This document shows, piece after piece, positions 3,616-28,875 of a stretch of 41,013 nucleotides of DNA (positions within the stretch are counted from its first letter, which is position 1; each line of letters begins with the position of its first letter). A model generated the notes under the pieces. It was not told the origin of the DNA. It searched no databases and was given only the letters and a program-made list of their open reading frames with translations. The DNA is taken from UHGV virus genome UHGV-1836508; one strand, 5' to 3'. The stretch comes from a virus. Position numbers and translations under genes: made by a program.

Positions 3616-3708
3616 TTATCCTTTGCTCCTAGATATGGTGGGCGTTCCATGCCCACCATTAAGTTAGTACCTACCTATTTTTACAGAAATGATTATTTTT
3701 TTCCACAA

Positions 3709-6700
3709 TCAAAGCCGACCAATCCTCACTCGAAGGACATTATTGTCATCATAAACGTCAATCCTCTGACCATTTATAACCAATCTCCCATTGCCGCCAC
3801 TATTGCCGTTGATCTCAAGCGTTCCATTTTTACCAAATCGCCATCCGGCTCGTCCGCTTACGAAGTTTGTTGATTGCAAGTCACCTACCTTTGCATTTGT
3901 GATAGTACCATCCTTAATATACGCACCATTCATGTATGCAACGCTGTTTTCGATAACAAATGGTGTGGTGATCTTTCCGTTAACTGAGTTAACTAGACCA
4001 AATCGATCTGCTTGCACCAAAAACTGGGAAAGCCCCGTGGTGTCAATTCCAAGCGCAATACCTGCGACATATTTTTGCCCACCACTTGTTGACGTTTCCA
4101 TCTTCAACGTCCACGCGGTTGAAACCTTTTTGTTAGTATCAGCAATAGCAGTTGCCTGCTCTTGAATTGTCGCTGTATTTCCATCAACTGATGCTTTTAA
4201 GGTGTCAATTCGTCCACTTAGAGCATTGTCGGCGTTTGTGCGCACAGTCGCCTCAGACGTAATCGCGGCATTAATATCTTTGCTCGTTTGCGCCTGTAGA
4301 TTAGTGATGCTAGAAGCCAAAGCCGAATCAGCGTCAGTTCTGGCTTTCGTCTCTTCTGCTACAGCCGCCTTAATATCTTTACCCGTCTGGCTCTTCAATG
4401 TGGTTATCTGTTGTGCTAAAGATTCATCAGCAGTTGCTCGGGCAATTTTTTCTTCAGATATAGCTGCACTAATATCGCCTTCAATTTTGGCTTGTAACGA
4501 TAGTATTTCTTTTGAAAGTGCTTCATCGGCACTAGCTCGTGCCTCTTGTTCACTCACAATTGCGGCAGAAATATCATCGTTAATCTTTGATTCAAGTTTG
4601 GTGATTCTGCTTGCAATAGCATTATCAGCATCTACACGAGCCGTTGTTTCTTCAGTGATTGAAGCTCTGATATCCTCATTTATTTCAGCGCGAATTTCCT
4701 CCATTTTCGTAGCCATTGCAGATATATCGTCTGCAAAAGCCTTCTGAGTTGTGGTGATCTTCGCATTACTCACCATCTGCTTGTGCTGATCTTCATCCTG
4801 ACGCAAAGCAAGATCGATGTTTGTTTTAGCCAATGCCTCAATGTTTGTCGTAACTTCGGCACTAGAACGTTCAACTTCAGCCACGGTTTTTTTCATTTCT
4901 TCAATGGTGGCTAAACTGCTATCTACAGTTGACTTCATCGCCTCGATTTCTTTCGCGTTTGCCAAGTCACCCTCAACTCGTGCTTCACGCTCCTCCGCAA
5001 TTAAAGCCGATGAATTGTCAAGTGCTGCATTTGCCGCCTCAACAGCTCCAGCTACAGCTTTACCCTGCTCTGATACAGTTTCCTGCAACTGAATTAAGGC
5101 AGCGTTAGAGTTTGCAACCTCCTTAAGTGCGTCTTCCACCTTGCTGACAGTACCGGAAACTTCCGTTTTAAGATTGTTTTGAGCTTCTTCAAGCCGCTGA
5201 TCGGCATCTGTAAATTTGTCATCGAGGATTTTCAGACTTTCTTCCATCTGTTGATAGATGGAATCCACCGCCTCCTGAGATACTTTTGAGTCGATTTCCT
5301 CAAGTAAAGTCTGGCCAAGTTCAGAAGACGTAATTTTGCCTGTCAGGAACGACAGCACATCGCGAGTCGTCGCCTCTGTACCCAAGTTTGAGTTCGGAGG
5401 ACTCAACATACCGCGCTTGTTTGACGCACGAACCCAGTAATACCACGTTTCGCTATCCCCAAGACCAGCATGTGTAAAGGTGGTGCTTGCAGACTCTGCG
5501 ATCAGTTTCGCTGTATCCAGATTGTTGGTCTGGGATGCGTAAACATTAATGTGATCAAGGTCTACCGAATCTGGATTAACCCAATTCAGTATCACATTAC
5601 GATAGTCTCCAACGGCTGTTAATGACGTTGGGGCATCTGGCGGTGTCATTGTGCCCAGCACCTGATAAACGGTACTGATAATCTCTGTTTTTTTACCGTT
5701 GAATGAAACCGCATACAGCTGGAAGTCGTAGCGTCCATTCTCCGCGACATTAACGATTTCGTATTGCTCTTCGGTTACACGCGCCGATTGCCAGTTCGAT
5801 ACATTGTTTGCATCAGAACGTCGCCAACTGATCCAATACTCTGGAGATTTCCCTTCCCATGTTGCAGTCAGTTTTACTGACAGGTTGCCCGGGCTTGAGA
5901 GATAAGTCCCTTCAGTGATTTGCAAATTAGACGGCTTGGAATAAGTCGGGTCCAATACCGTCGTATTCTGCGGGATAAGCGTTGCACCATTGTCGATCGC
6001 CTCATATTTAGACGGATTGTTCTCAACAGCGGTGATGTCAAAGCTACCCGGCGTTTCCCCCTGTGCTATGTTAACAATGCGAACGCGCATAGGTTCGAGG
6101 TCTGGTTCTGTAATAGTCCAGACGCCGTTCAAAACAGGCGTTTCAGCCGAAGACAGGGCTTTTGAAAACGTAACTTTTGTTATATTTTCGCCAGTTTCAA
6201 GAACATCGCGTTCAACGATTTTGCCTTCCTGATTCAGTATTCGAATAAAGCAGCCGCCTTTGGCTAACGACACAGGCGCATCGAGTGTGACGCTGTTTTT
6301 GGTAAACGCCACAATTCGACCTGAGTTACGTTTGCCTGCGCGATATTTGTTCTGAATCAGAACGGTTTCACCAGGCATCAAAAATGACGCGTCTAAGCCG
6401 GCAGTAAATGTAATTACATCCGACTCCATTCTGGCGGTATATAAAAGCCACAAACCAACTCGGTGAGCCTGCCCTCGGCTTGTACAGCCAAATGCCACGA
6501 CTTCTGTCTTACGCTCACCATAACGGCGCATTGCGTCCTGATCTTCAACGTACTCGATGTTTTGCTTATAACCGTCCTCCTTGTTGTTGTAGGTTACGAG
6601 CGCAACGGATGGGCGATCTTTACGCGCAGAACCTTTATAGGTAAACAATCCATCTTTGACGTTAGAGTTGGTAAACATCATTACCGGATCTGACGGGCTA

Positions 6701-7869
6701 TCCTGCATGATGTTAACCATGCCACCAGCCCAAAACACCATGCCGCGGAATGCTCCAGCAATATCCTGAATTAGTCGGTATGCGTCCTGTCGACTGGTAA
6801 TCTGCGTATTGATTGCAAAACGTTTCTCTTTGCCACCAAAGCCATCATCAACCTCTTCGTCACAATATCGACCGATCTGGTACAGCTGGCCGAGGTCAAT
6901 CATGGACTCTGATACAAATTGGCCAAGCCCATATCGTTCATTCGTTAACAGGTCGAAAAGAATCCAGGCTGGATTGGATGAAGACAGCAGCTTAAACGTA
7001 CCGTCCCATACTCCAACGTAAGTGTTACTGGATTCGTTATAGTTTGATGGCACACGAATTTTTAGGCCACGCACCAGATAAGAGCGAGAAGGCATAGTGC
7101 TGCCGAACTGCTCAGAATTAACCTTCAACCCCACCAGCACAGAGTTTGGGTAGTTCATCGGTGTATCGACAATCTCACCTATTGAATCCACCCATGTATC
7201 GTTATAGAGATACTGGCTGCTGTTATCATCGGTAATACGGACTACACGAACCTTGTATGCGCGTCCAGGCTTAGGCAGCTTCAGCTCATAGCTACGGTAA
7301 TAAACACCTGTCTTCTTTGCTGTTAGCTTAATGCCAACGCTTTTTTCACCTTCTGCGACCACATCTACAAATGTTGAGTCGCCATTTGCTATCTGGAACT
7401 TGTACTCAACGCTTGTACCGTTCGTGTCACCAGTTTTTTTATCTATGCTTCGCAAAGAAGGAAACTTCATGATGACACGAACCCGATCAGCTTCATCGTT
7501 ATCGATTGAAACCGTTACATAATGTGTTTTTTTTAACTGGATATTGACGGATTTAGGCGTTTCAACGAAATCAAAGCCAGACATTGGAGTCTGGTCTTGC
7601 GAACCGTCGCGAAAATCCCATGTGATTCCGCTGAAGTTGGAGGAACCGTCTTCATTTACAATCGGCAGATCGTCGATAAAAATAGATCTTGCGCCATTTA
7701 CTAAGCCGCCAATTACCCCTTCCCCAAGAAGATCGAGGATAGCGGCCATTGCACGAGAATTTACGGTATCGTCGGCTTCAACCGGTGTACGGCTGGAGCT
7801 TTTGCTGCTTTTTTTACCACCCGCACCGGCAATAAACAGCGGTAGCTTTTTCTTCTTGAACTGTTCCAT
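3709..7869 (-). CDS. central tail fibre / host specificity protein (lambda gpJ-like)
   Basis: About 1386 aa, position after I-K-L-M, gpJ-like N-terminal and C-terminal regions (…AYIKDGTITNAKVGDLQSTNFVSGRAGWRFGKNGTLEINGN…). Track start at 7875 is TTG; first ATG with SD is at 7869. Confidence 0.9.
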   Translation of the reverse strand: MEQFKKKKLPLFIAGAGGKKSSKSSSRTPVEADDTVNSRAMAAILDLLGEGVIGGLVNGARSIFIDDLPIVNEDGSSNFSGITWDFRDGSQDQTPMSGFDFVETPKSVNIQLKKTHYVTVSIDNDEADRVRVIMKFPSLRSIDKKTGDTNGTSVEYKFQIANGDSTFVDVVAEGEKSVGIKLTAKKTGVYYRSYELKLPKPGRAYKVRVVRITDDNSSQYLYNDTWVDSIGEIVDTPMNYPNSVLVGLKVNSEQFGSTMPSRSYLVRGLKIRVPSNYNESSNTYVGVWDGTFKLLSSSNPAWILFDLLTNERYGLGQFVSESMIDLGQLYQIGRYCDEEVDDGFGGKEKRFAINTQITSRQDAYRLIQDIAGAFRGMVFWAGGMVNIMQDSPSDPVMMFTNSNVKDGLFTYKGSARKDRPSVALVTYNNKEDGYKQNIEYVEDQDAMRRYGERKTEVVAFGCTSRGQAHRVGLWLLYTARMESDVITFTAGLDASFLMPGETVLIQNKYRAGKRNSGRIVAFTKNSVTLDAPVSLAKGGCFIRILNQEGKIVERDVLETGENITKVTFSKALSSAETPVLNGVWTITEPDLEPMRVRIVNIAQGETPGSFDITAVENNPSKYEAIDNGATLIPQNTTVLDPTYSKPSNLQITEGTYLSSPGNLSVKLTATWEGKSPEYWISWRRSDANNVSNWQSARVTEEQYEIVNVAENGRYDFQLYAVSFNGKKTEIISTVYQVLGTMTPPDAPTSLTAVGDYRNVILNWVNPDSVDLDHINVYASQTNNLDTAKLIAESASTTFTHAGLGDSETWYYWVRASNKRGMLSPPNSNLGTEATTRDVLSFLTGKITSSELGQTLLEEIDSKVSQEAVDSIYQQMEESLKILDDKFTDADQRLEEAQNNLKTEVSGTVSKVEDALKEVANSNAALIQLQETVSEQGKAVAGAVEAANAALDNSSALIAEEREARVEGDLANAKEIEAMKSTVDSSLATIEEMKKTVAEVERSSAEVTTNIEALAKTNIDLALRQDEDQHKQMVSNAKITTTQKAFADDISAMATKMEEIRAEINEDIRASITEETTARVDADNAIASRITKLESKINDDISAAIVSEQEARASADEALSKEILSLQAKIEGDISAAISEEKIARATADESLAQQITTLKSQTGKDIKAAVAEETKARTDADSALASSITNLQAQTSKDINAAITSEATVRTNADNALSGRIDTLKASVDGNTATIQEQATAIADTNKKVSTAWTLKMETSTSGGQKYVAGIALGIDTTGLSQFLVQADRFGLVNSVNGKITTPFVIENSVAYMNGAYIKDGTITNAKVGDLQSTNFVSGRAGWRFGKNGTLEINGNSGGNGRLVINGQRIDVYDDNNVLRVRIGRL
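4230..4700. repeat. five tandem 93-nt (31-aa) repeats in the coiled-coil part of the J-like gene
   Basis: Peptide units DI(S/K/N/R)A(A/S)I…AR…AD…L…I…L recur five times (DISAAIVSEQEARASADEALSKEILSLQAKIEG and variants). Confidence 0.6.
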
Positions 7870-7886
7870 GTTCAAAAAATCCTTGT

Positions 7887-8480
7887 TTACATTAGCTGGT
7901 CAATCGTGATTGAAGAACTCACAACCTGTGAGCCAACCAGAATTTCCTCGCCATAGATAAGTTGTACTGGGTTGCCCTGGTTTTCTGTATTTTGAGGGCC
8001 GTCGAAATAATAAGAGTTCGAGTTATCTGCCTGTCTCACACTTTCGTTAGTGGCTTGCGGCGATATTATTTGTGATATGCCGCCCATCATCAGTGACAAA
8101 CCGAGAGGTGCTAAAGCAGGCATCACTACCGCCGATACAACCAACAAAGCGGCCCCTACTACCGTCTGAAACCACCCAAAAGCAGATCCACCGCTTCCTC
8201 GCGGAACAGGTGTAATGCGGATTTTGGCAATGTTGTCAGACTGCCCCATCATCTGATATTCACTTTCGTCAACAGACCACTTGTGGCCCTGTTTATTGGT
8301 GATCTGGATGTGGTAACGGTCATAGGTTTTGATATTGCGCTTCATCCATGCTTTAAACCCAGGCTTGTTGGCCTCAATTAAATCCAGAGCCTGTTTTGTA
8401 TTGCGCACCTTTAGATGCCAGTGGCGGCCAAAATGTTTGGCCATAGGGCCGCCAAGCTGCACATGAACTAACTCAGACAC
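7887..8480 (-). CDS. tail assembly protein (lambda gpI-like)
   Basis: 197 aa between K and J homologues; hydrophobic Gly/Ala-rich C-terminal segment as in gpI. GTG start with SD AAGGGAG. Confidence 0.7.
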   Translation of the reverse strand: MSELVHVQLGGPMAKHFGRHWHLKVRNTKQALDLIEANKPGFKAWMKRNIKTYDRYHIQITNKQGHKWSVDESEYQMMGQSDNIAKIRITPVPRGSGGSAFGWFQTVVGAALLVVSAVVMPALAPLGLSLMMGGISQIISPQATNESVRQADNSNSYYFDGPQNTENQGNPVQLIYGEEILVGSQVVSSSITIDQLM

Positions 8481-9265
8481 GTCTCATCTCCCTTGAGCAA
8501 GTCTCTGTGACGCAAGTGATGCGTCGTATGTTTCTGATACATTCCGCCGTAATAAGCACGACAACTAAGACGGTCGATCTGGTGATGAAGAATCATTCCA
8601 TCGCCGATATAAACCGCGCAGTGATCTGGCATTTTCCCGTATTGAATAAAGAAGACGTCCCCACGTTGAGGCTCTGTTCCAGGCGCAAGCCGTACCAATC
8701 CCTCGTTTCGGTAGTTCTGGTCGAGAATGTCGTTATCGCCGGTGTACCACGATGGAATATGCAGGTGTGCGTTCGGGTTAAGCTCGACGTTAAACTCACG
8801 CTTCAAATAGTCCCGACACAACATCCAGCAATCGAATACGCCAAATACATACGGTCTCCCCAGGTATGGCATTTCGAAACCATCAGGTGTGATCACATTC
8901 ATCTCGCTAAAATGGAAAGGGGCATCTCCCTCAACATTCTTGCGAATAGCCAGAATCATCCACGGAACTTCCGTCGCTTCACAGCCTGCACGATCGGCAT
9001 CAGATGCTTCTGCTGATTCATCAGTATGTGAATGCCAGATTGCGATTACGTCACCTGCATCCTCTGCCGCCATAATGTCGTCAACGTGCATTACAAAAGT
9101 GTTCTGCGGGTTCTCCGAAACATTTCGCGCTTCCATAAAGCGATATTTGTCGCCATTAGTTCTCACCAGAAAGCCACACGCTTCATTAGGGTAGCGATTT
9201 ATGGCGCAGAGATAGATTTGCTGCATAACATCAGAGCCAAGCTCAGGGATTGCTTTATTACCCAT
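8468..9265 (-). CDS. tail assembly protein (lambda gpK-like; MPN/JAMM plus NlpC/P60 domains)
   Basis: N-terminus …NEACGFLV… and HSHTDESAEASDADR (JAMM HxH…S…D) followed by a Cys/His NlpC/P60-like half, as in lambda K. Track start 9292 is TTG; ATG with SD GGAG is at 9265. Confidence 0.85.
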   Translation of the reverse strand: MGNKAIPELGSDVMQQIYLCAINRYPNEACGFLVRTNGDKYRFMEARNVSENPQNTFVMHVDDIMAAEDAGDVIAIWHSHTDESAEASDADRAGCEATEVPWMILAIRKNVEGDAPFHFSEMNVITPDGFEMPYLGRPYVFGVFDCWMLCRDYLKREFNVELNPNAHLHIPSWYTGDNDILDQNYRNEGLVRLAPGTEPQRGDVFFIQYGKMPDHCAVYIGDGMILHHQIDRLSCRAYYGGMYQKHTTHHLRHRDLLKGDETCLS

Positions 9266-9956
9266 ATCGCGTAGCTCCAATAAACCCGCCAAAATGGATC
9301 ACTCCGTTGGCAAAATAATTCCGACGCGCATTACAGGCGTCATAACGTTTTGTGCAGTAATCAGCACCAGACATAGACGTCTGCTGGTTATTTTTGTCGA
9401 AATATGGACCGGTATAGCCGCATTCTGGCCCTCGGTATTTCCACGGGCAGGTGTTTTTAATGATCTGACGATACGGCAGTTGCACCCCCATCAAATCGAA
9501 CACACTGGACAATTCAAACTCGACAACCTGATGAGTTTCGAGAGTTTTCTGTTCGATAAACCACATTTCATCCGGGAAATGTTGGTTTGGATCTGCTGTT
9601 GGGTTGCCGTCTTTAAAATTAACGGCATCGAGGAAGCGAGCCAGCGTCATCTTGCGAATAATGCGGCAGCCAACAAGATCGTCGTTCGCCTGAACTTCCG
9701 CAGAGACGGTTCCGGCAAAGTTCGATACCTGAATTTTTGGACGTGGCAACGTTCCCTGGCCAGTTTTGTCAAAGCCTGATGCTTTGATTGGCCACGGCTC
9801 GTATGTCACTCCTTGCCAGACGACCGGTTGCATCAGTTCGTTTGTTCCGGCGTGGAAGAATAACTTCCCCCCTGAAGTTGTGTTCGACATATCCAGTACG
9901 AACAACTCAATGAGTGCAGAGGGAGATAAGCTCTGAATATCAGCTTTAATTCCCAT
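9258..9956 (-). CDS. minor tail protein (lambda gpL-like, Cys-rich C-terminus)
   Basis: Strong similarity to lambda L: VVWQGVTYEPWPIKASGFD…ARFLDAVNF…CPWKYRGPECGYTGP…C…C. ATG at 9956 has SD AAGGATG and gives 232 aa, the same length as lambda L. Confidence 0.9.
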   Translation of the reverse strand: MGIKADIQSLSPSALIELFVLDMSNTTSGGKLFFHAGTNELMQPVVWQGVTYEPWPIKASGFDKTGQGTLPRPKIQVSNFAGTVSAEVQANDDLVGCRIIRKMTLARFLDAVNFKDGNPTADPNQHFPDEMWFIEQKTLETHQVVEFELSSVFDLMGVQLPYRQIIKNTCPWKYRGPECGYTGPYFDKNNQQTSMSGADYCTKRYDACNARRNYFANGVIHFGGFIGATRYG

Positions 9957-10038
9957 TGTTTCATCCTTGAAATAAGTAGGCGCTAACATCCTGTCAGCGC
10001 CACAATGATAGTAAATTAGTACTTACTTATCCAGATAC

Positions 10039-10374
10039 TTAAGCCTCAAATACTTGTCTGAATGTAGCAGTTAAGACACAGTACCCCTGATATCGCTTGA
10101 CCGTATGACTGTCACATACAACTACAATCCGTTTTCCTCTTGGATTAACCCAATAGAACGACTCAACTCCTGCTCGCTCAGTCAGGAAGTCATCGATTGC
10201 ATTAATTTCGTTGTATGATCTGGTAAAGGTTAACGACCATTCTTCTTTAATACGATTAAGACCTTGAGCCTGTCGCTGCTCGTAGTCATCACCAAAATTA
10301 AGTACCGTTACATTCGGTTTTACGCTCTTTTCAGATTCGTAATCTGGATACCAATTAAACGTTTGTCTTTCCAT
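10039..10374 (-). CDS. minor tail protein (lambda gpM-like)
   Basis: 111 aa with FGDDYEQRQAQGLN, matching lambda M FGDGYSQRAPAGLN; SD AAGGA 7 nt upstream of the ATG. Confidence 0.85.
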   Translation of the reverse strand: MERQTFNWYPDYESEKSVKPNVTVLNFGDDYEQRQAQGLNRIKEEWSLTFTRSYNEINAIDDFLTERAGVESFYWVNPRGKRIVVVCDSHTVKRYQGYCVLTATFRQVFEA

Positions 10375-16471: not shown

Positions 16472-16526
16472 TGATGGAAAACTCCTTTTTCCGTTAATTC
16501 TACGCATTCATTGCGCTAATAGTAAG

Positions 16527-16554
16527 TATATACTTACTAATTGAGTTAATTCAA
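16527..16554 (-). promoter_or_regulatory. candidate sigma70-type promoter for the major tail gene (TTGAAT - 16 bp - TATATA)
   Basis: Hexamers read on minus strand; the -10 lies in the perfect palindrome TAGTAAGTATATACTTACTA. Confidence 0.4.
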
Positions 16555-19130: not shown

Positions 19131-20051
19131 TTATTCCTGTGCAGCAGTGACTTCTACGGTCGCTGTCGCTTTGTGGCTACCATCTTGGGTAGTAACCTCG
19201 ATTGTGGCAGTACCAGCCGCAACGCCAGTTACAACACCGGTTTCGCTATCCACCGTTGCAAACTCGGTATTTTTGGATTCCCAAGTAACGGTTTTATTTG
19301 TTGCTCCTGCCGGCTCGACATTTGCGGTCAGCTGAACAGTTTTGTTTGCCTCAACGGTTGTGCTATTTGGGTCGATTTCGACGCCGGTAACAGCCACAAC
19401 AGGCGCAGTTACTTCCACCGTTGCAGTTCCCTTTTTGCTGCCATCTTGGGAAACGATCTCAATCGTCGCAGTGCCAACTTCTACACCAGTAACGTTCCCG
19501 CTCTGGTCTACCGTTGCCTTGTCTTCATTTTTGGAAGACCAAGTAACTGCCTTATTCGTCGCATTTGACGGCTGAACATTCGCTTTCAGACTGACTGATT
19601 TCCCTTTCTCAACAGAGGTTGAGTCTGGCGTTACCGTTACGGATTGAACGGCTACCGGATTTACGGTGACTTCCACTGACGCGGAAAGCTGGGTTTCCTG
19701 ATCAGTTGCGGTAATTTTCACTTTGCCTGGTGCTACGCCAGTTACTAATCCAGTGCCGTTGACGGTTGCAATTTGATCATTGGCTGACTTCCAGGTGAAT
19801 GAACTGGCACTCTTACCCATAGTAATACCTGCACTAAGTTGAACAGTTTTCCCAACCAAAACTGACGGTGAAGCCGGGGTTATGTTTACGGATTGGGAGA
19901 AGGGAACCGCCTGCAAACAAGCAGATAGCTGACTTTGTTGTCGCTCGGTTAAAGGTTCATCGGAGATAGAATTGGTAAATCCGGCACGGCACATATGCCC
20001 CGTAAAATCCGAAAATGCCTCTTCCGTAATCTTCATCTTTTGTTCTGGCAT
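19131..20051 (-). CDS. Ig-like (three Big_2-type repeats) virion surface protein, probable head decoration protein
   Basis: Three repeated units of the form …V(T/S)VTP…(V/A)xxGxTVQL(S/T)A…P…ATN…V(T/W)(W/K)xS…ATVD…G…V(T/R)GV…G(T/S)…I… immediately downstream of the major capsid gene and its attenuator. Confidence 0.7.
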   Translation of the reverse strand: MPEQKMKITEEAFSDFTGHMCRAGFTNSISDEPLTERQQSQLSACLQAVPFSQSVNITPASPSVLVGKTVQLSAGITMGKSASSFTWKSANDQIATVNGTGLVTGVAPGKVKITATDQETQLSASVEVTVNPVAVQSVTVTPDSTSVEKGKSVSLKANVQPSNATNKAVTWSSKNEDKATVDQSGNVTGVEVGTATIEIVSQDGSKKGTATVEVTAPVVAVTGVEIDPNSTTVEANKTVQLTANVEPAGATNKTVTWESKNTEFATVDSETGVVTGVAAGTATIEVTTQDGSHKATATVEVTAAQE

Positions 20052-20093: not shown

Positions 20094-20124
20094 AACATAG
20101 ATAATTACTTATCTACTTCACTGA

Positions 20125-21025: not shown

Positions 21026-21913
21026 TTACTTAAGTCCAATTTTCCCCAGACCGGAGGCCAACTTATCCATAGTCGACTTGTTCTTCGGTTGGGATATTGT
21101 GTAGGTCGATTTGGAATGTGAGCCTACACCCTGCTTGGCTTCGCTACGCATCAATGCGTCAGCTTCCGGATCTGCCCGCACAATGCGTTCAATCGCGGAT
21201 TCAAACGGCAACGGCTTACCTTCACCGTCAACCAGAACAGCTCGTTCTTTGTGACCTGCCGGTTTGTCATAACCCACTACGCTACCGTCTTCACCCACTT
21301 CAAAATGAGAACCGTAGATCACGCGGGCTTTTGCCGGGGTCATCAGAACTTTGTCACGTAGGAAGAGAGAGTTACTGAAGGAAGCGCCCACGGTCATCTC
21401 GACTAATTGAGATTTCAGTGATGCGTTTTCACTTTCCAGTGCTGCATAACGTTCGTCACGCTGTGCCAGCTCTGCCTGGTGTGCTTCGATCATCTGTTTT
21501 TTAACAGCATCGAACTCACCACGACGCTCCAGTTCAGCTTGCTCCGCCTCACGACGTGCGTTTTCTGCGGCCTGTTCAGCTTCTAAAAGCTGGCGAGCAC
21601 GAGCCGGATCGATATCACCGTACTGAGCAAGCTGATCGGCCAATGTGCGCTCTTTCTCTTTGCGCTTCATGTTCTCCTTCAGCAGTTCAGCACCAGCTTT
21701 CTTGGTTTTACGAAGTTCGGCCAGTAACTCTTCCTGAGTCATGCCAGCGTATTCGTCATCGCCCTTCGGCTGCTCTTTTTGTTCACCCTGTTTGTCAGGA
21801 TCTTGTGTACTCTGCTCATTATCAGCAGCTACACCGCCAGCGCCTCCACGCTCATGCGCTTCAGCGACATCCATCAGACCACGACGGGCCAAAAGCATTT
21901 GCCACAGATTCAT
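21026..21913 (-). CDS. scaffolding protein
   Basis: 295 aa, long charged coiled-coil stretch (…AELERRGEFDAVKKQMIEAHQAELAQRDERYAALESENASLKSQL…) between portal and capsid genes; SD AAGGA. Confidence 0.6.
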   Translation of the reverse strand: MNLWQMLLARRGLMDVAEAHERGGAGGVAADNEQSTQDPDKQGEQKEQPKGDDEYAGMTQEELLAELRKTKKAGAELLKENMKRKEKERTLADQLAQYGDIDPARARQLLEAEQAAENARREAEQAELERRGEFDAVKKQMIEAHQAELAQRDERYAALESENASLKSQLVEMTVGASFSNSLFLRDKVLMTPAKARVIYGSHFEVGEDGSVVGYDKPAGHKERAVLVDGEGKPLPFESAIERIVRADPEADALMRSEAKQGVGSHSKSTYTISQPKNKSTMDKLASGLGKIGLK

Positions 21914-21934
21914 AAAAATTCCTTTTGTTACTTA

Positions 21935-23509
21935 TCACTCGTTCTCTTGAGTAGATGAGTCCCCATTCCCTCGGGGTTGATCTTGCCCGCTTTCTTGGGC
22001 TGCACCACGATCATAAGTAAGTACTGACTTATTTTCAAGGGTATTTAGATCATTTTTTGGAGGAAAATTCAAGAGATCTTTATCAAATTCCTTTTTCATC
22101 GCCTCAGTAATGTTCGGGAAAATCTTCTCAATAAGCATTTCCATCTGGTGACGACGTACAGAGTCCGGTGCCTGAAGTAATGACAGTTTCTCGGCAACAG
22201 AAAATTCATCAGTAAGGCCACGAATATCGAAACTTTCTGGATATGCAATTAAAGAGTGGTCTTCGTCCAGATCTACCCCCATCCATTTCGCAACCAGTAG
22301 CATGATTTGGCGTTCAGCCCTTTCCAGACGCTCTGCTTTTGTGACAAGCAAGCTATTTACACGCTGGAAGTCATACATTTTTGCGGCACCAGATGAATTA
22401 TCGATTCCCTGTGCGTTGTCCTGCTTCGTTCGCTCACCAGCTACACCAACTGAATGGTAGATTTCGTTAATCACCGTCTTAATCGTAGTGATGATCATCT
22501 GAGCTTGTTTCGGGTCTGGTGACAGATAAAACGGCTGGTTTCCACCTTCAGAATCGTAGGTGAAGACTCGCTTTGTGCCCATTTCAAGCACTTTAGTGTG
22601 GTTTTCATCACCAGGTAAAAGCGACTGTACCGGTATAGCCAACTGGCTAAATGTCTGATCCTGAATAATGGCATCAAGGTTTGACAGATAGTTTGCAACC
22701 GCACGATCAAGATAAGCGATATCATCGATCAACGATGGGCTGAAATACGGTGATTCACTTTCTCCAATACAATCAACAGGAAACACAGGAACTACGCCGA
22801 GATTATGCTCACCGCTATCCTCTAAAATTACTTTTGCCTGACGGCGACCTGCTCCACCAGCGCCCTTCTTCACTTCCTCACGGAACAGATACCACTCGTT
22901 TTGTGTCCACAGACGATAACGTTGGTATTCCTGACCTGTAGAAGTAAAAGGATCTGCGTCATCACGAGCGACTTCCACAATTAACGCCCACAACATATTC
23001 CCGTCGTCGTCCCATGCCACATCCAGCATTTGCTGAGGTGAAATCCAGTAGGCGTAGGCGCGAGCATCTTTCTTTTTCTCGTCAGCTACTGACTCAACAT
23101 CACCACTCATCGTGCTATCGACAACAACCCATATGCGACCGTAAATAGACGACTGCAAATCAATAGCGGCCATAAATGAGTCAATAGAGGCATTCTGGCG
23201 AGTCGCACGTTTCCAGAAATTGCGGATCTGCTCTGGTGCCTCTTCGATATTTCTATGAATGTCTTCTTTAAAGAGATATTTGTTGATGAGGTTTACCACC
23301 TCACGAGTGTGGTTGAAGCGATAAGCACGTTCAACTCGCTCCTTAAACTCCTGATCTCCCTCTTTAAAGTAACGAAAGATATTGTCTGTAAACCAACCAC
23401 GCCCGCCAGCGTAAGTGCTGGCGAGGAAGTCCCAATGTTCTTTTTTCTTTTCGTATTCCGGGTGGCGTCGCGCCACCAGATCCTTAATTTGTTTGTCGTT
23501 CAATTCCAT
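21935..23509 (-). CDS. portal protein
   Basis: 524 aa directly downstream of the terminase large subunit; size and position. Confidence 0.8.
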   Translation of the reverse strand: MELNDKQIKDLVARRHPEYEKKKEHWDFLASTYAGGRGWFTDNIFRYFKEGDQEFKERVERAYRFNHTREVVNLINKYLFKEDIHRNIEEAPEQIRNFWKRATRQNASIDSFMAAIDLQSSIYGRIWVVVDSTMSGDVESVADEKKKDARAYAYWISPQQMLDVAWDDDGNMLWALIVEVARDDADPFTSTGQEYQRYRLWTQNEWYLFREEVKKGAGGAGRRQAKVILEDSGEHNLGVVPVFPVDCIGESESPYFSPSLIDDIAYLDRAVANYLSNLDAIIQDQTFSQLAIPVQSLLPGDENHTKVLEMGTKRVFTYDSEGGNQPFYLSPDPKQAQMIITTIKTVINEIYHSVGVAGERTKQDNAQGIDNSSGAAKMYDFQRVNSLLVTKAERLERAERQIMLLVAKWMGVDLDEDHSLIAYPESFDIRGLTDEFSVAEKLSLLQAPDSVRRHQMEMLIEKIFPNITEAMKKEFDKDLLNFPPKNDLNTLENKSVLTYDRGAAQESGQDQPRGNGDSSTQENE

Positions 23510-23535
23510 TTGAATAACCTTAGATAATTACTTAC

Positions 23536-24792
23536 CTATCGAGAACCACCAAGAATAACACGGTTTTTGACTGGATACCTACGATGTACTGGATAGCCCA
23601 ATGCGTCTGCACTATGCTCAATGCCACCTGTCTTATCCATATCTCGTGTTCCAGGCTTGTAGATGACTTTTTCCAGTGAATCAATCAAATGCTTGCACTT
23701 CGGATCGATATACAGCCGGATATCTCCAGATGCGGTCATCAGCATTCGGTTAACAGCATTAACACGATCCGCAATTGGCGGGTGCTTTTTCGAATAATCG
23801 ACACGTAAGAATCCCTTCTCTTTGAATATGTCGACGTCAGACTCCCCGCGAGCATGTTGGCGATAAGCACCTGCCGGATCTGGAAATACCGTTATCTGTG
23901 ATTTCCAGCGCCAGAAGCGTCTCTCAAGCTCATCACAAACCTCTGCCGTGTTAGAGGAAAAGAGCACCAATTCATCAATTGCCCATAGCTCACCATTTGG
24001 CTGAGGTTGCAAAATTACTGAAGACATCGGGTCAATGTTGAAGTCCTGCCCTACCCATATAGGCAACCGAGGGTTGAACTGAAGCGGTTTTACATGCACG
24101 TTACGATCGAACGGGTAGTAAACGCGCCCGGACATGTTCTCAAAGCTCGCCAGGTACTCCTGAGCGAACGATTTCGGGTCCATATCGTTCTTAGCAGCTT
24201 CAATTTCCGCCGTAGGTACAAACGGAGAATCGGCAGTTACAAACTGCCAGCTCTTCCACTGTCCCTTTCTTTGCAGCTCTACGTTCTGGCCTATAGTCCA
24301 CAGTTTGTGAAATTCCGAGAAGCCTTTTGGCGTACCAATGATCAGTGCACCGCCGCGTGTCGATGAAAGAGTAGGTCGTAACACCTTGTACCAGGTGTCA
24401 GCCTTCATATCCTGAAATTCATCAAGCACTACAAAATGCAACGCTACGCCGCGCAGAGTGTCAGGCTTATCAGCACCTTTGAGGGCGATCTCCGAACCGT
24501 TCTTCAACACGATTGTCATCGTGGTGTCGTTCTTTTTCCTAACCCACTTACGAGGCAGAACTTCCTGTAGATCGTCCCACAAAATCTGGCGAGCCATCTG
24601 GTAAGTAGGAGCGACATACCAGACTCTTTGCTTTTTTTCCTTTGCCGCCGCACGAATAATAGTGGAGATCGACAACCGGGATTTTCCCCAGCGTCGACCA
24701 GCACAAACAACTTTAAATCGATGCGGAGACTGGAAGACTTTCATCTGTCCAGAATGCAGTTGCACAAGACTGAGCGAGGACGGGATTGCCAT
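23536..24792 (-). CDS. terminase large subunit
   Basis: Walker A …VVCAGRRWGKSRLS… and Walker B VVLDEFQDM in the N-terminal ATPase half; position before portal. Confidence 0.85.
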   Translation of the reverse strand: MAIPSSLSLVQLHSGQMKVFQSPHRFKVVCAGRRWGKSRLSISTIIRAAAKEKKQRVWYVAPTYQMARQILWDDLQEVLPRKWVRKKNDTTMTIVLKNGSEIALKGADKPDTLRGVALHFVVLDEFQDMKADTWYKVLRPTLSSTRGGALIIGTPKGFSEFHKLWTIGQNVELQRKGQWKSWQFVTADSPFVPTAEIEAAKNDMDPKSFAQEYLASFENMSGRVYYPFDRNVHVKPLQFNPRLPIWVGQDFNIDPMSSVILQPQPNGELWAIDELVLFSSNTAEVCDELERRFWRWKSQITVFPDPAGAYRQHARGESDVDIFKEKGFLRVDYSKKHPPIADRVNAVNRMLMTASGDIRLYIDPKCKHLIDSLEKVIYKPGTRDMDKTGGIEHSADALGYPVHRRYPVKNRVILGGSR

Positions 24793-25424
24793 TATTCGTC
24801 CTCCCCTTCAATTCCATCATCTGTCGCATCAAATTCGCTTAGAGCTTCTTCTTCCAACGTCTCAAGCAATTCGTCATCGATGATTTCAGGCTCGTCGTCT
24901 TCCTGACGTAATTTCGCCACCTGGGAAGGCGTAAGCTCACCAAATACCAGGTTCGGAATTTCTTCCTCGTCATTTTCCGCATGATCCATGCCCAATGCTT
25001 TGGACGAAACTTCAAAGCATTTTGCAAGGGTATTACTGGCTCTCTGTAAGCTCTTGAGAGAATCCTCAATCGCCCCTAAAGGCTTACCCTCACGTTTGGC
25101 CGTAGTGACTTCGACCATCACCATCTGCCCCAACGCATACGCCCAGCCGTCATAACGTGTACGACGTTCTTCTATCTTTTCCGCACGGGCTTTAGCGCGA
25201 AGCTCTGCGTCAGATTTAAGAGACTCACGAACCATCTTCCCAACAGAGTCCGCGCCTTTCTCTAATCCTCGCTTTTTGAAATGTCTGGAGAGTGTTTCAC
25301 GACGAATGCCGTACTCTTCCTCCAGCTTTGAGAGTGTATATTCGCCTGACGTCCATTTGGCTTCAGCTTCGGCCCACTCCGCTGGTGTCAGGCGAGTTTT
25401 TACCTCGTCTTTTTCGACCGTCAT
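24792..25424 (-). CDS. terminase small subunit (putative)
   Basis: 210 aa, HTH-like N-terminus (YTLSKLEEEYGIRRETLSRHFKKRG), acidic C-terminal tail, stop overlaps large-subunit ATG (TAATG). Confidence 0.6.
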   Translation of the reverse strand: MTVEKDEVKTRLTPAEWAEAEAKWTSGEYTLSKLEEEYGIRRETLSRHFKKRGLEKGADSVGKMVRESLKSDAELRAKARAEKIEERRTRYDGWAYALGQMVMVEVTTAKREGKPLGAIEDSLKSLQRASNTLAKCFEVSSKALGMDHAENDEEEIPNLVFGELTPSQVAKLRQEDDEPEIIDDELLETLEEEALSEFDATDDGIEGEDE

Positions 25425-25443
25425 AGATCCCTCTAAAACACAC

Positions 25444-25463
25444 AGAGCGCGTCCATGCGCTCT
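25444..25463 (-). other. leader hairpin immediately upstream of the terminase small subunit RBS
   Basis: AGAGCGC-gtccat-GCGCTCT, 15-20 nt before the SD. Confidence 0.5.
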
Positions 25464-25507
25464 AAAACAACTTGTTTACTGCATCTGCTAACCAACTTGT
25501 TTTCTGG
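25464..25507 (-). promoter_or_regulatory. two copies of the shared palindromic leader element (AAACAAGTTGTTT type) upstream of the terminase genes
   Basis: Plus strand aaaacaacttgttta (25464-25478) and accaacttgttttctgg (25491-25507); same element as in the early-gene leaders. Confidence 0.5.
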
Positions 25508-25549
25508 GGTGTTTAATTAGGTCTGGCATGTCTTACGAAGCCTGCTTCC

Positions 25550-25586
25550 GTATATATTTAATAAGTTACTTATTATTTATATATAC
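25550..25586. promoter_or_regulatory. 37-bp AT-rich nested inverted repeat upstream of the terminase genes
   Basis: gtatatat-tt-aataag-tta-cttatt-att-atatatac; outer arms gtatatat/atatatac and inner arms aataag/cttatt. Confidence 0.5.
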
Positions 25587-25619
25587 AGATGCAGGTCTTT
25601 AAATAAGCTCCCAGACCGA

Positions 25620-25886
25620 TTACATCACCAGTAACTTCGCTTTGGCTCGACCTAAAGTGGTTAACCCAAGAGTCCGGCGGTGATAGCGATTGTCACTGCG
25701 TTGGCGCGTATGCCCTTTCTCCACCAGCCCCTTTTTTATCAGAGCGCGAATTGAGAACTGGATACTTTGCTTGGTTGTCTTGTACGGCAAAACTTCAAGC
25801 AATTCGTCCAGGTCAAGTAGATGACCTCGCTCATAACCGAGATTGAGCGTTTTGATGATGTCCTTTTGTTTATCGGTTAACGTCAT
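25620..25886 (-). CDS. small winged-helix-like DNA-binding protein (putative regulator)
   Basis: 88 aa, basic C-terminus, helix-turn-wing pattern (…QSIQFSIRALIKKGLVEKGHTRQRSDNRYHRRTLGLT…); SD AAGGA 7 nt before the ATG; last gene of the ParB operon. Confidence 0.45.
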   Translation of the reverse strand: MTLTDKQKDIIKTLNLGYERGHLLDLDELLEVLPYKTTKQSIQFSIRALIKKGLVEKGHTRQRSDNRYHRRTLGLTTLGRAKAKLLVM

Positions 25887-25895
25887 GGCAAATCC

Positions 25896-26786
25896 TTATG
25901 CCGGTAAAGCAATTTCTAACGGTTTATCCAAAGGTTGTTTGTCGAATGCCAGCAGTGGCAGCGTGTCAGGCAGTCGACGGCCAAAGTCAGGGTTTCGGTA
26001 CACACCATACAACGGAGACGTAAAGCTCAGGTTGTGAATGTCCTTGAGCAGCTTCACAATGCTGGCCTCGTCCACCAGACTGTCGGCAATGTCCTGAATC
26101 GTCGTGCCACGATTCCGCCCAGCTTTTGCCAGGGAACTGTTCTTATGGTAGTCCGCCACCAAATCGCGCAGCGCACGGCGACGACGAGACTCGCTCATAG
26201 CGAACAACTCTTTGACGATCGCCTCGTTATCACCCGGGTCGGAGCGGAAATGGCGCTGGAACACACGCAGTGCACTTTCATAGCTCTTCGGTCGCTCAGG
26301 GCGGATGAACTTAAACCCTGCTTTCATGGCGAAGGGATTGTATTTGCTCATCGAGGACTGGATCTCAATGATTGGCCGGTCATGCATCCTGCTAACCAGG
26401 TTAATCATTCTATAAGAGACGCCTACGCCACGATACTGAGTATCCACAACTGAGCGACTGATCACCGCAAAGTTGTTATTCACGTACCGACCCCAGTACT
26501 GGTTAGCCACGGTGGTATTAGTGGTTGGTTTCAACTTAGGAAACATGCGGTGGCGAGGTGCCAACAGTAGTTTCGGGTAAGCCATAACCACGACGCCCAC
26601 CAGACGGTCATCAAGTTCGCAGCGATAGTAAGTTGGCGCGAAAGGTTTGCCGTCTGTTTTGTAGTGAAGCGACTTAAGAGCGTGCCAGTCCTCTACAGTT
26701 CCCTTTGTAACAGTCATTCGCTCCAGAAAGTCCAGATGACGCGGAAACTCTTCAGGGCGGTAGCGTTTAATGATGATGTCCGTCAT
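25896..26786 (-). CDS. GNAT-like acyltransferase-fold protein with C-terminal extension
   Basis: GNAT motif A-like QYRGVGVSYRMI preceded by hydrophobic strands, and motif B-like YNPFAMKAGFKFI; about 130 extra C-terminal residues. ATG overlaps the ATPase stop (ATGA). Confidence 0.5.
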   Translation of the reverse strand: MTDIIIKRYRPEEFPRHLDFLERMTVTKGTVEDWHALKSLHYKTDGKPFAPTYYRCELDDRLVGVVVMAYPKLLLAPRHRMFPKLKPTTNTTVANQYWGRYVNNNFAVISRSVVDTQYRGVGVSYRMINLVSRMHDRPIIEIQSSMSKYNPFAMKAGFKFIRPERPKSYESALRVFQRHFRSDPGDNEAIVKELFAMSESRRRRALRDLVADYHKNSSLAKAGRNRGTTIQDIADSLVDEASIVKLLKDIHNLSFTSPLYGVYRNPDFGRRLPDTLPLLAFDKQPLDKPLEIALPA

Positions 26787-27448
26787 GAATGGACCTCATC
26801 ATGACTACCATTGTGATATTCCACCTTCACGCGTTCTTTGTAGTGCTTGGTGATCTGCATATCAGGGCGCAGCGCGTTCTTCAGGTCTTCGTGAGTCGTC
26901 GCCACCATTACCGTCGCACCAACCTTTCGAGCGGCACGCTGGAGGTTAGACGCCACAACCTGAGCGGTTACACGGTCGAGAACAGCGCCGAACTCGTCAG
27001 CAGCCCATACTTTAGCGCCTGACTCAATCAGTTTGGCAATCTTGAGACGATATTTCTGGCCGTCTGACATTTCAGAAGGCTTGCGAACAAACAGATATGC
27101 ATCGTTCAGACCAGCCATAGATAACAACCCAAGCGCATCACTGGTCGTTTTGCCCAACTGATCGATGACGTTAACCTCATTATCGAAGGTAAAATCATCG
27201 ATGGAGGCTACAGACAGCCCTTCATCCTTCATCTGTCGTTGCAACTCGCGCAGCACAACGGATTTGCCGGAACCGGATTGGCCGGTGATGTACACCACAT
27301 CGCCCTGCTTCACTTCCAGCTCCAGATTGTCGTAAAGCGTCCACTCTTTTTCGTCCAGGCCAAGCCCGAACGACTCAGCGATTTCCAACGTGCGCGTGGT
27401 TTTATTTACGCGTGTCTGAAACGATACGTTGATGATGTATTTGCTCAT
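26783..27448 (-). CDS. stand-alone ABC-type ATPase (nucleotide-binding domain only)
   Basis: Walker A GQSGSGKS, ABC signature MSDGQ, Walker B VWAADEF, H-loop TTHED; no transmembrane segment; ATGA overlaps on both sides. Confidence 0.75.
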   Translation of the reverse strand: MSKYIINVSFQTRVNKTTRTLEIAESFGLGLDEKEWTLYDNLELEVKQGDVVYITGQSGSGKSVVLRELQRQMKDEGLSVASIDDFTFDNEVNVIDQLGKTTSDALGLLSMAGLNDAYLFVRKPSEMSDGQKYRLKIAKLIESGAKVWAADEFGAVLDRVTAQVVASNLQRAARKVGATVMVATTHEDLKNALRPDMQITKHYKERVKVEYHNGSHDEVHS

Positions 27449-28113
27449 GCAGCCATCTCCCCGGAAGAGATCTTCTCCGCATATGCCACAAATGCGTCTA
27501 CCCCGCTTTCTCCCGTCATTTCTTCCATATGGGCAAGCAAATCACCAACAACAATGGCAGAGCCAGCAGGGAGCGTTTTAAAGCCCAATACGTCGACAAC
27601 ACGTACTTCTTCCGCTGCAACTTCACGACTGATCTCGGTGTGTTCATCCTTCTGTCGTTTAGTTTCTTCGCCAAGATCGATAACTAGCGAGTCGGTGTCC
27701 ATTTCTTCTGTCATACTGCCAACGAGAACATTCAACTCACGCTCTTCAAAGCCGAAAACCTCAATATCGTCCAGAACAAGCGACTCAAGCTCTTTCTGTA
27801 GCTTAATTGCATCGTAATCAATGCTGGCAAGTCGGTTATCTTCAAGGCGCTTCGCACGAACCTCGTCATCACTCAGATCATCACGAACAATAACCGGTAC
27901 GCGCTCAAGTCCAGCAAAAATTGCAGCCTCACGGCGGCCGTGGCCAGTAATAATTACGTCGTTCTTATCGACCGTAATTGGCTGGTCAAATCCGCGCTTT
28001 TTAATGGCTGCGGCCAAATCTCTGATCTGCTGTTCATCATGCTTTTTGGCATTCATCTCATAGGGAATAAGATCTGCCGGGTCGCGATATACGATTTCAA
28101 ACTTTTTGGTCAT
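27445..28113 (-). CDS. ParB/Srx-fold (ParB N-terminal domain) protein, paralogue 2
   Basis: …VIITGHGRREAAIFAGLERVPVIV… matches the ParB arginine-rich motif; ATG at 28113 overlaps the upstream stop (ATGA). Confidence 0.75.
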   Translation of the reverse strand: MTKKFEIVYRDPADLIPYEMNAKKHDEQQIRDLAAAIKKRGFDQPITVDKNDVIITGHGRREAAIFAGLERVPVIVRDDLSDDEVRAKRLEDNRLASIDYDAIKLQKELESLVLDDIEVFGFEERELNVLVGSMTEEMDTDSLVIDLGEETKRQKDEHTEISREVAAEEVRVVDVLGFKTLPAGSAIVVGDLLAHMEEMTGESGVDAFVAYAEKISSGEMAA

Positions 28114-28811
28114 TACATACGCTCCTTGTAGTAGTCGACCAGCCACACCAGAGCCTCACCAGCGTTCTCCATTTCATTACCGGTGTTAATAGCCTGCTCT
28201 TTGATGATGTTTTTTATGGTTTCTGCAACACGATCTGACGCATCGAAAGTTACTTTGAAGCGCATGGTCTGATGTTCCGCACCCACACGTTCGGTTTTCT
28301 CTCGTTTGTCGGTATCGACAGGCTCATCACTACCACGAGACAACGCCTCCAGTGCTTCAAGGTCGATTGCCGCCTCTTTTGCTAAAACCATCGAGATTTC
28401 GTCGTCATACGGGGCGATTTCAGACAGTTGATAGTCAAGTTCTGACTGAATTTCTTCAATGAAGCGTTGCAATGCGATTTGGTCGTCTTCACCGTATCGC
28501 TCGTTGTCCACCAGTGACATCTGTTTAGCTACGACATCGCTAATTTTGCCCACAGAAAGCACCGGAACCGTTGAAATTCCTTGCTCAATAGCAGCACGCC
28601 AGCGATGTTCACCGCCGAGGATTTCAAAAAATCCATCTTCAAGTTCACGAGCCAAAATTGGCTTAAAAAAGCCCAATTTTTCGATAGAACCTTTCAGTTT
28701 TTCAAAATTCTGCGCACCAACCGAATTGGTGTTCCAGGTATTCGGGCGAAGGTTGGCAACATCAACCTGCAAAATCGTGATTTTTACATCCATTTTATTG
28801 CTACAATCCAC
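28113..28811 (-). CDS. ParB/Srx-fold (ParB N-terminal domain) protein, paralogue 1
   Basis: …EILGGEHRWRAAIEQGISTVPVL… is close to the canonical ParB GERRxRAA box. Start uncertain (GTG 28811 or ATG 28793), both with weak SD. Confidence 0.7.
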   Translation of the reverse strand: MDCSNKMDVKITILQVDVANLRPNTWNTNSVGAQNFEKLKGSIEKLGFFKPILARELEDGFFEILGGEHRWRAAIEQGISTVPVLSVGKISDVVAKQMSLVDNERYGEDDQIALQRFIEEIQSELDYQLSEIAPYDDEISMVLAKEAAIDLEALEALSRGSDEPVDTDKREKTERVGAEHQTMRFKVTFDASDRVAETIKNIIKEQAINTGNEMENAGEALVWLVDYYKERM

Positions 28812-28875
28812 TAAGTAATCACTTACTTATTATAATAGCCAAATAACATACAAAAGGCACTAAGGAAAGAGGTTT

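Follow-up and report, generated by a model that had tools for sequence, protein, structure and literature searches.

Dispersed operators in phages and plasmids

The KorB and KorA operators of plasmid RK2 and the sopC sites of phage-plasmid N15 are short palindromes, dispersed in the element and lying mostly at promoters, that coordinate operons. The operators of the P1 repressor C1 are asymmetric; a single operator type is scattered at many lytic promoters of this phage-plasmid, in varying registers relative to the −35 and −10 elements, and the P1 late genes additionally need Lpa. LexA boxes are palindromes of 16-20 base pairs (bp), bound by LexA as a dimer at variable positions. Here we describe a symmetric 20-bp palindrome, consensus ATAGGTAAGTACTTACCTAT, that recurs in the virus genome UHGV-1836508 (41,013 nucleotides, the whole of which is called the window below) and in related SSU5-like phage-plasmids. 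Judged from the sequences, this palindrome is a real, strongly non-random and conserved cis-regulatory element, present genome-wide in this group, and we put at about even the chance that its copies are dispersed operators of a phage repressor occluding σ70 promoters. The motif is apparently undescribed: searchable literature yielded no description of it or of any promoter, operator or repressor of the SSU5 group, and nothing published on how SSU5-like phage-plasmids control lysogeny versus lytic growth.

In reverse complement, the window corresponds to part of an SSU5-like phage-plasmid of about 108 kb. Such elements are common among Escherichia, Klebsiella, Salmonella, Yersinia and Enterobacter, their portal gene is present in 966 plasmid records, and published papers report that they carry antibiotic-resistance genes. 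Positions 5293-40777 aligned to Escherichia phage Cyrano (the pLF82 plasmid prophage, OV696614) with 96-99% identity, and positions 1-5292, which hold the tail fibre and the end of a J-like gene, show no relation to it. In a window otherwise about 99% identical to Cyrano, the divergence of the tail-fibre gene and of the C-terminal J-like end indicates exchange of a host-range module with its boundary inside the J-like gene. The minus-strand genes below about 28800 comprise a ParB-like operon, terS, terL, portal, scaffold, capsid and tail genes. Annotated Cyrano, Salmonella phage SSU5 and Klebsiella phage pJN2-26 served as whole-genome comparators, joined by the Klebsiella plasmid Kp72 (portal protein 72% identical) and, as distant relatives, by an Acinetobacter baumannii plasmid (portal 52% identical; CP116441) and an Aeromonas plasmid (portal 55% identical).

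Compared with the described systems, the palindrome is closest in layout to the C1 operators: in both phage-plasmids one type of site is scattered over many lytic promoters in varying −35/−10 registers (about 24 sites in Cyrano, of which 20 are in spacers). However, several C1 operators are annotated in the P1 record as 17-bp monovalent sites, whereas the sites described here are symmetric, 20 bp long and unrelated in sequence. No C1 homologue was found by tblastn at E≤1 and, the operator sequence being unrelated as well, homology with the P1 C1 system was rejected. With LexA boxes the palindrome shares its size range, its variable position and an apparently graded induction of the regulon, but it does not contain the CTGT-N8-ACAG arms and its regulator is presumably phage-encoded and lineage-specific. 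Unlike the RK2 KorB and N15 sopC systems, the ParB-family genes present here are silent in the plasmid state, and site sequence and length differ.

A 20-bp palindrome recurs in intergenic spacers

The initial annotation had pointed to TAAGTAA and TTACTTA words in the intergenic spacers of the late block, and had proposed for them a late promoter, a regulator-binding element or an RNA processing signal. These words are the half-sites, or arms, of the 20-bp palindrome ATARGTAA-N4-TTACYTAT. The consensus drawn from 74 sites in three genomes is aaaAT-ATAaGTAAGTAcTTACtTAT-nATt, and the perfect form is found in the Klebsiella relative. A site was called when at least 13 of the 16 defined bases matched, or at least 14 under a stricter threshold. 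The heptamer TAAGTAA occurs 14 times on the two strands of the window against 3.9 expected from dinucleotide shuffles, and none of the 100 shuffles reached this number. Palindrome clusters number 8 against 0.43 expected (maximum 3 in 200 shuffles), and 4 against 0.03 at the stricter threshold. When only the AT-rich spacers of Cyrano were shuffled (GC content 39%), 0.58 sites were expected compared to the 20 present in these spacers, 0.03 compared to 14 at the stricter threshold and 4.4 heptamers compared to 29. The recurrence initially noticed is therefore real and lies far above the expectation for AT-rich sequence. Nearly all strong Cyrano sites are intergenic, as are, in full, 26 of the 38 Cyrano heptamers in a genome of which spacers make up 13%. 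Palindromes account for half of the 14 heptamers in the window; of the others, two are pairs of a Lys and a stop codon (AAG TAA, at 21026 and 39698), one is a conserved half-site and four look incidental.

The sites of the window, with their match to the 16 defined bases, are as follows.

3659-3678, minus strand reading ATAGGTAGGTACTAACTTAA: spacer separating the J-like tail gene from the tail-fibre gene, 13/16; followed by a GC hairpin and a ribosome-binding site; orthologous site kept in SSU5
10011-10030, minus strand reading ATAAGTAAGTACTAATTTAC: spacer between minor-tail genes M and L, 13/16; followed by a hairpin bearing the L start codon; a conserved island across four genomes whose flanks diverge
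16518-16541: upstream of the major tail gene, two overlapping registers; 16520-16539 is the perfect palindrome TAGTAAGTATATACTTACTA
20097-20116: just past the stop codon of the major capsid gene, 13/16; followed by an intrinsic terminator at 20090-20074; the Klebsiella relative carries the perfect consensus at the matching position
21928-21934, minus strand: isolated half-site TGATAAGTAAC in the portal/scaffold spacer, kept in relatives without a partner arm
22013-22032: within the portal gene, 15/16; SSU5 and pJN2-26 have exactly the 20-mer of the window and Kp72 matches it at 17/20, while neighbouring codons vary
23520-23539: in the 26-bp spacer between large terminase and portal, 14/16; overlaps the terminase stop codon and ends 10 nucleotides (nt) before the portal ATG; orthologues match 15/16 in SSU5 and 16/16 in pJN2-26
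25554-25580: palindrome-like core ATAAGTTACTTAT in the terS leader, two registers of 14/16 each; at the centre of a nested long inverted repeat and probably part of a different, larger element
28811-28830: in an 82-bp divergent region, 15/16; between a UvsW-like helicase operon (plus) and a ParB-like/terminase-proximal operon (minus); a TATAAT hexamer (28831-28836) abuts it on the helicase side; the syntenic position bears a site in the SSU5, Klebsiella, Acinetobacter and Aeromonas relatives
37240-37257, minus strand: weaker variant TTGTAAGTACATACCTAC between a −35-like TTGTAA and a −10 TAGAAT (37234-37229); directly behind a terminator, with a small early-type gene downstream; core and −10 position conserved in four genomes

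Seven of the positions first reported (3661, 10019, 16521, 20104, 23521, 25561 and 28811-28830) agree with these coordinates to within a few bases, and the perfect palindrome announced upstream of the major tail gene is indeed present. At 21936 the motif is conserved but is merely the half-site, and at 37241 it exists only as the weaker variant; the site inside the portal gene was absent from that list.

The restriction to a late block did not hold. In Cyrano, the palindrome precedes structural and lysis genes (portal, decoration, tail-tube, L, tail-fibre and holin), but also primase-region and other early-type genes, so that replication, recombination and nucleotide metabolism are represented as well. 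Among the units that it precedes are the replication-operon leader (CYRAN_31), CYRAN_34/35, a CobS-like gene, a gp32-like single-stranded DNA-binding protein (SSB) gene and an Ead-like gene, together with SbcD, NrdA, ThyX and Dam. Toxin-antitoxin pairs, parA and repA, all expressed in the plasmid state, have no copy in their Cyrano spacers.

The palindrome is conserved and co-varies between lineages

SSU5 and pJN2-26 each contain 25-26 sites at orthologous positions, often nearer to the consensus than those of the window, and when the window sites were aligned with up to three relatives the palindrome appeared as a conserved island in otherwise diverging spacers. The Klebsiella plasmid Kp72 carries the same motif as the window. 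In the Acinetobacter baumannii plasmid the motif reads ATTAGTAAGCGCTTACTAAT (arms ATTAGTAAG..CTTACTAAT; about 29 sites genome-wide) and in the Aeromonas plasmid ATCAGTAAGTGTTTACTGAT (arms ATCAGTAA..TTACTGAT), and both sets of sites occupy the same syntenic spacers as the enteric ones. Across lineages the core GTAA-N4-TTAC is constant, while the outer bases change in both arms together; the lineage variants offer a natural series of protein-DNA co-evolution. The perfect enteric 20-mer was found at 39 IMG/VR loci, 38 of them clearly SSU5-like; the remaining locus aligns to SSU5-like references over just 17% of its length.

The palindrome overlaps predicted promoters in many registers

All promoter and start-site positions given here are predictions, obtained by scanning all sites in three genomes. 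Those conserved in two or three genomes overlap the palindrome in many registers, its centre lying anywhere from about −43 to +15.

Palindrome as the spacer: portal-internal promoter; CYRAN_56 promoter, TTGAAA-17-TATCAT
Palindrome centre as the −10: tail-tube promoter, TTGAAT-18-TATACT
Palindrome covering the −10 and the start site: TTTACA-17-TAGTAT (CYRAN_60)
Palindrome over the start site: TTGCCA-17-AAAAAT (Dam)
Palindrome at about +8 to +27: TTCCAA-17-TATCAT (replication-operon leader)
−35 and −10 closely flanking the palindrome: TTGATA-17-TAACAT (NrdA)
Right arm (TTTACC/TTTACT) as the −35 for a downstream, often TGn-extended, −10, with the palindrome centre at about −31 to −37: CYRAN_34, Ead-like gene, SbcD, CYRAN_83, tRNA-region leader

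Two of these promoters lie in the window. The site at 22013-22032 makes up the exact 17-bp spacer between TTGAAA (22038-22033) and TATGAT (22015-22010) on the minus strand, the best prediction of the consensus scan in the 15.5-30 kb interval (10/12 matches), which is directed toward the scaffold and capsid genes and keeps the same register in three genomes. The predicted tail-tube promoter consists of TTGAAT (16554-16549), 18 bp and TATACT (16530-16525) on the minus strand, in a register conserved in Cyrano, SSU5 and pJN2-26; the TATA(C/T) centre of 16518-16541 doubles as its −10, a role that accounts for the unusual conserved TATATA centre of 16520-16539. In the late operon, several sites are found 1-21 nt from the next start codon and thus leave no room for the geometry of an upstream activator.

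Class I and class II activator sites keep a fixed spacing. A register that varies over the core promoter elements is, by analogy with LexA and P1 C1, typical of repressors, and it does not suit the late promoter first proposed. The proposal of a regulator-binding element, by contrast, is supported by a symmetric and conserved 20-bp palindrome overlapping promoter elements. That the palindrome would itself be a σ70 promoter, with an A-rich flank as the −35, the arms as a 17-bp spacer and TAT(C/T)AT as the −10, was rejected: this arrangement holds at two loci only, the mean −35 match is about 2/6 and −10-like ends are equally common in both orientations.

A conserved TTTACA-17-TAGTAT promoter at Cyrano 19381-19420, and at the orthologous positions of SSU5 and pJN2-26, is predicted to start 2-3 nt before an ATG. 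The gene behind it encodes a small membrane protein, is devoid of a Shine-Dalgarno sequence and is about 80-fold up under stress; its mRNA may be leaderless.

Most genes behind the sites are silent in the lysogen and some rise under stress

Expression values were taken from the published RNA sequencing table of LF82, the Cyrano lysogen (PMC9928086, S1 Table), in which growth in lysogeny broth (LB) and a 6-h macrophage condition can be compared. In the lysogen, expression does not exceed background for almost all genes that have a site in front of them. Even behind near-consensus σ70 promoters, CYRAN_56 and CYRAN_60 stay at the read floor in LB, and the silence of such promoters where the palindrome overlaps them gives indirect support to a repressor. 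Under stress, genes behind these promoters increased 20- to 80-fold: log2 expression went from 2.3 to 7.6 for CYRAN_56, from 2.3 to 8.6 for CYRAN_60 and from 4.3 to 8.4 for CYRAN_12. The gene downstream of the tail-tube promoter rose from about 4 to 8.4 log2. In the macrophage condition, CYRAN_56, CYRAN_60-62 and the tail-tube and capsid genes increased 8- to 80-fold whereas their upstream neighbours did not, a rise that fits a partial derepression of the strongest core promoters. The LexA-boxed integrase gene and the cro-like gene beside the putative repressor gene were strongly increased under the same condition. Finally, expression in the lysogen drops on average from the gene upstream of a site to the gene after it. 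Since canonical GC-rich terminators share these spacers and explain the drops, the latter are not informative on the palindrome and do not separate the models.

A dispersed operator as the preferred model

In the model that we consider to stand at even chances, a symmetric, dimeric and phage-encoded DNA-binding protein would recognise ATAGGTAAGTACTTACCTAT as double-stranded DNA. About 25 copies would be distributed over the 108-kb element, 8-9 of them in the window, with one heading almost every lytic transcription unit. Each copy would overlap a different part of a σ70 promoter, be it one of the −35 and −10 elements, the spacer between them, the start site or the 25 bases transcribed first, and the bound protein would exclude or block the host RNA polymerase. 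Replication, morphogenesis and lysis genes would in this way be held silent in the plasmid state and released on induction. The absence of sites before genes expressed in the plasmid state was counted in favour of such a repressor. We infer here that a protein binds, that its binding represses and which proteins it may be.

Taken one step further, and with slightly less confidence than an even chance, we propose a previously undescribed master regulon of the SSU5 supergroup and its Acinetobacter and Aeromonas relatives. Some 25-30 operators per genome would co-evolve with one small phage regulator, possibly the 88-aa winged-helix protein or the XRE-type repressor presented below, that alone would gate replication, morphogenesis and lysis; an architecture like that of P1 C1 would then have arisen independently, with symmetric operators. 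Such an operator would mark the heads of almost all lytic transcription units and thereby supply a ready-made map of these units, would give a direct handle for capturing the master regulator, and would offer a way to predict or engineer the induction of SSU5-like elements.

Several results weigh against the repressor model. Every promoter and start-site position on which it relies is predicted, and many site-bearing promoters have no −35 but an extended −10 instead, which is typical of activator-dependent promoters as well. CYRAN_34 and the UvsW-like helicase gene have sites at their promoters, yet they are expressed at 4-5 times background in the lysogen, and site strength did not correlate with expression in the lysogen or under stress (rho 0.11, 0.01 and −0.07). 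The expression data themselves describe a lysogen population under stress and not a clean induction time course. In the Acinetobacter plasmid the sites are directional, the left arm being well kept whereas the right arm is often CTTACTATAAT. SSU5 has no repressor/integrase module of the CYRAN_45 type, yet it has kept high-quality sites, which fits a recent deletion or, equally, a positive role of the sites. Finally, the binding proteins discussed below are candidates.

An activator-binding element is the main rival

The alternative that survives best, although we regard it as unlikely, is that the palindrome serves as activator-binding element of phage middle or late promoters, in the manner of the Lpa or MotA boxes: a protein made after induction would recruit RNA polymerase to promoters that have no −35. 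At 4-6 conserved promoters the palindrome does replace the −35 before a TGn-extended −10, with its centre at about −31 to −43. The gene of the 88-aa winged-helix protein lies immediately upstream of terS, just as lpa lies before pacA in P1; it is not expressed in the lysogen but rises under stress, and the recognition helix of its product varies in parallel with the motif. The sites retained by SSU5 without the putative repressor module, and the directional Acinetobacter sites, which end in TATAAT, also speak for an activator.

The palindrome does resemble the P1 late promoters. In the curated P1 record, seven of these consist of AAGTKACTT or ATGTGACTT followed, after a gap of 4 nt (once 9), by the −10. 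The palindrome shares with them the AAGT/ACTT half-sites and an inverted repeat located before a −10-like TAnnnT and ahead of morphogenesis and lysis genes; its inner core AAGTACTT with a TAT(C/T)AT end, as in AAGTACTT-ACT-TATCAT, resembles the P1 late layout AAGTKACTT-N4-TAnnnT. Both elements moreover have a gene for a small DNA-binding protein (predicted in the case of the SSU5-like element) directly upstream of the terminase genes.

Whereas P1 boxes keep the 4-nt gap in six of the seven late promoters, the palindrome is 20 bp long and its position varies from about −43 to +15 with no fixed spacing to the −10. Eight of the 20 sites end at most 21 nt from a start codon, some of them within 1-20 nt, too close for activation from upstream. 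Several sites overlap near-consensus σ70 promoters, which should work without an activator and yet show no activity in the lysogen. In enteric members, −10-like ends are as frequent on one side of the palindrome as on the other. Instead of the 9-bp AAGT-N-ACTT box, the inner core is the 8-bp AAGTACTT, and the Acinetobacter centre is AAGCGCTT; true 9-bp AAGTNACTT boxes number 2-4 per genome, most of them in a separate long inverted repeat. Nor is the palindrome restricted to late operons, since it also precedes the SSB, NrdA, ThyX, Dam, SbcD and CobS-like genes. When Cyrano, SSU5, pJN2-26 and the Acinetobacter plasmid were searched by tblastn with P1 Lpa, no homologue came up (best E-value 0.29). 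We therefore rejected membership in the Lpa-promoter family and retained the functional analogy solely as the main rival of the dispersed operator.

Candidate binding proteins and the ParB-like alternative

Besides the two ParB_N proteins taken up below, three proteins were considered as candidates for binding the palindrome.

Outside the window: CYRAN_45, XRE-type putative repressor, expressed in the lysogen
25620-25886, minus strand: 88-aa winged-helix protein, immediately upstream of terS
30438-30716, plus strand: 92-aa ribbon-helix-helix-like protein, downstream of the helicase gene

CYRAN_45 has in its promoter region the palindrome core GGTAAGTGCTTACC, conserved in pJN2-26, together with extra half-sites, and a CYRAN_45 homologue lies beside the integrase in Acinetobacter. 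The XRE-type protein gave a weak HTH_19 match. Canonical LexA boxes (CTGT-N8-ACAG) are found, outside the window, upstream of the integrase gene (Cyrano about 1038-1060) and of an S24 (UmuD/LexA-like) peptidase gene (L003 about 9280-9300), and the integrase gene converges on the putative repressor gene; boxes and convergence fit an SOS induction, possibly via transcriptional interference.

The AlphaFold model of the 88-aa protein (pLDDT 82) matches MarR-family folds with a TM score of about 0.7, and its predicted recognition helix, near-invariant in enteric members, changes along with the motif in Acinetobacter and Aeromonas. A homologue search with this protein returned close relatives from the same elements only. 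As to the 92-aa protein, its gene belongs to the operon whose promoter abuts 28811-28830, is expressed in the lysogen (114 normalised reads) and has syntenic counterparts in all lineages encoding small proteins with a beta-alpha-alpha pattern, but the residues of the predicted DNA-facing strand differ among enteric members that share the motif.

A search of Pfam and PHROGs for binders brought up only ParB_N, the weak HTH_19 match and families of unknown function. The two ParB_N proteins are conserved in all lineages, have a GxxRxxA box and adjoin 28811-28830, which raises a second alternative: the palindromes would be loading or binding sites of these proteins, acting as a KorB/ParB-like clamp for silencing, partition or packaging. 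The operon of these genes starts at a site in every lineage, and sites that are dispersed and mostly intergenic resemble the RK2 KorB operators. However, neither gene exceeds the read floor in the lysogen, and their products therefore cannot maintain silencing or partition there; Pfam finds ParB_N only and no helix-turn-helix domain in either protein, and thus neither a DNA-binding domain nor plasmid-state expression was found; and a separate ParA operon, expressed in the lysogen, is located elsewhere in the genome. We consequently leave this alternative a small chance. By eye, the ParB_N protein at 28113-28793 (minus strand) has a C-terminal beta-alpha-alpha pattern resembling a ribbon-helix-helix, which together with ParB_N would be an unusual domain combination.

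In the Acinetobacter plasmid CP116441, a gene at 3078-3743, between MoxR-like and DnaE genes, is annotated as a σ70-family factor and has a weak Sigma70_r2 match (E 0.003). As tblastn and Pfam scans of nine conserved unknown proteins gave no counterpart of it in the enteric SSU5-like genomes, a phage sigma factor was rejected. A similarity to sites of host factors such as Fur or the NarL heptamers, or to the P22 Arc operator, was likewise set aside; the motif is specific to the lineage and present some 25 times per element.

The palindrome is probably read as DNA rather than RNA

An RNA hairpin in polycistronic transcripts, serving for processing, weak termination or 5' stabilisation, appears even less probable than the ParB-like clamp. 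It could account for late-operon sites lying in transcribed spacers just 5' of ribosome-binding sites, for A-rich and T-rich flanks able to lengthen the stem, and for the tendency of lysogen expression to fall across site-bearing spacers. This fall is, however, explained by the GC-rich terminators mentioned above. Mispaired arm positions are of the G:U type in 39 cases and of the A:C type in 45 on the sense strand; an RNA hairpin would favour the G:U type, and the lack of any strand bias argues against it. The predicted hairpins are weak (−2.8 to −7.7 kcal/mol; z-scores of +0.8 to −3.3 compared with shuffles), some being no better than shuffles and one worse than its own, the terminator scan called none of the palindromes, and comparison of the window with Rfam families gave no match. 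In addition, about 25 paralogous sites keep their primary sequence, although a hairpin acting through its structure would have no need of this, and several sites lie upstream of predicted transcription starts or in the divergent promoter region. These observations speak against the RNA processing signal of the initial annotation, and we conclude from the sequence features that the element is most plausibly read as double-stranded DNA by a symmetric protein.

The last alternative, a chance effect of AT-rich spacers and TAA stop codons, has practically no probability left: Lys-stop gene ends account for 2 of the 14 window heptamers and 6 of the 38 Cyrano heptamers, but the window and Cyrano shuffles already refute it, and the sites are kept at orthologous positions with both arms co-varying across genera.

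Other repeats in the window

A second palindrome, AAGAAAACAAnTTGTTTaa, occurs in the window at 25466-25476, 25489-25503, 35509-35519, 36744-36754 and 37648-37658, and 11-13 times per enteric genome. It is located about +8 to +25 past good σ70 promoters (for example TTGACG-N15-GATAAT) or flanks them, and is essentially absent from the Acinetobacter relative, where a single copy was found. It is probably the operator of a different regulator that controls early genes and parA.

The nested long inverted repeat of the terS leader spans 25508-25629, with inner arms at 25541-25557/25579-25595 and outer arms at 25508-25526/25611-25629. Each genome has three syntenic copies of this repeat, the other two of which follow, in Cyrano, the parA operon and the Dam gene. 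At the centre of the repeat lies AAGTTACTT, the same sequence as the P1 LPhot late-promoter box, and RNA level drops sharply across the copy located after CYRAN_30. The repeat may act as insulator or terminator, as late promoter, or as a site related to packaging or replication. The terS ribosome-binding site is directly preceded by a hairpin that has a T-run and resembles an intrinsic terminator (25443-25464, minus strand), which suggests that the terminase/late operon may need read-through or antitermination.

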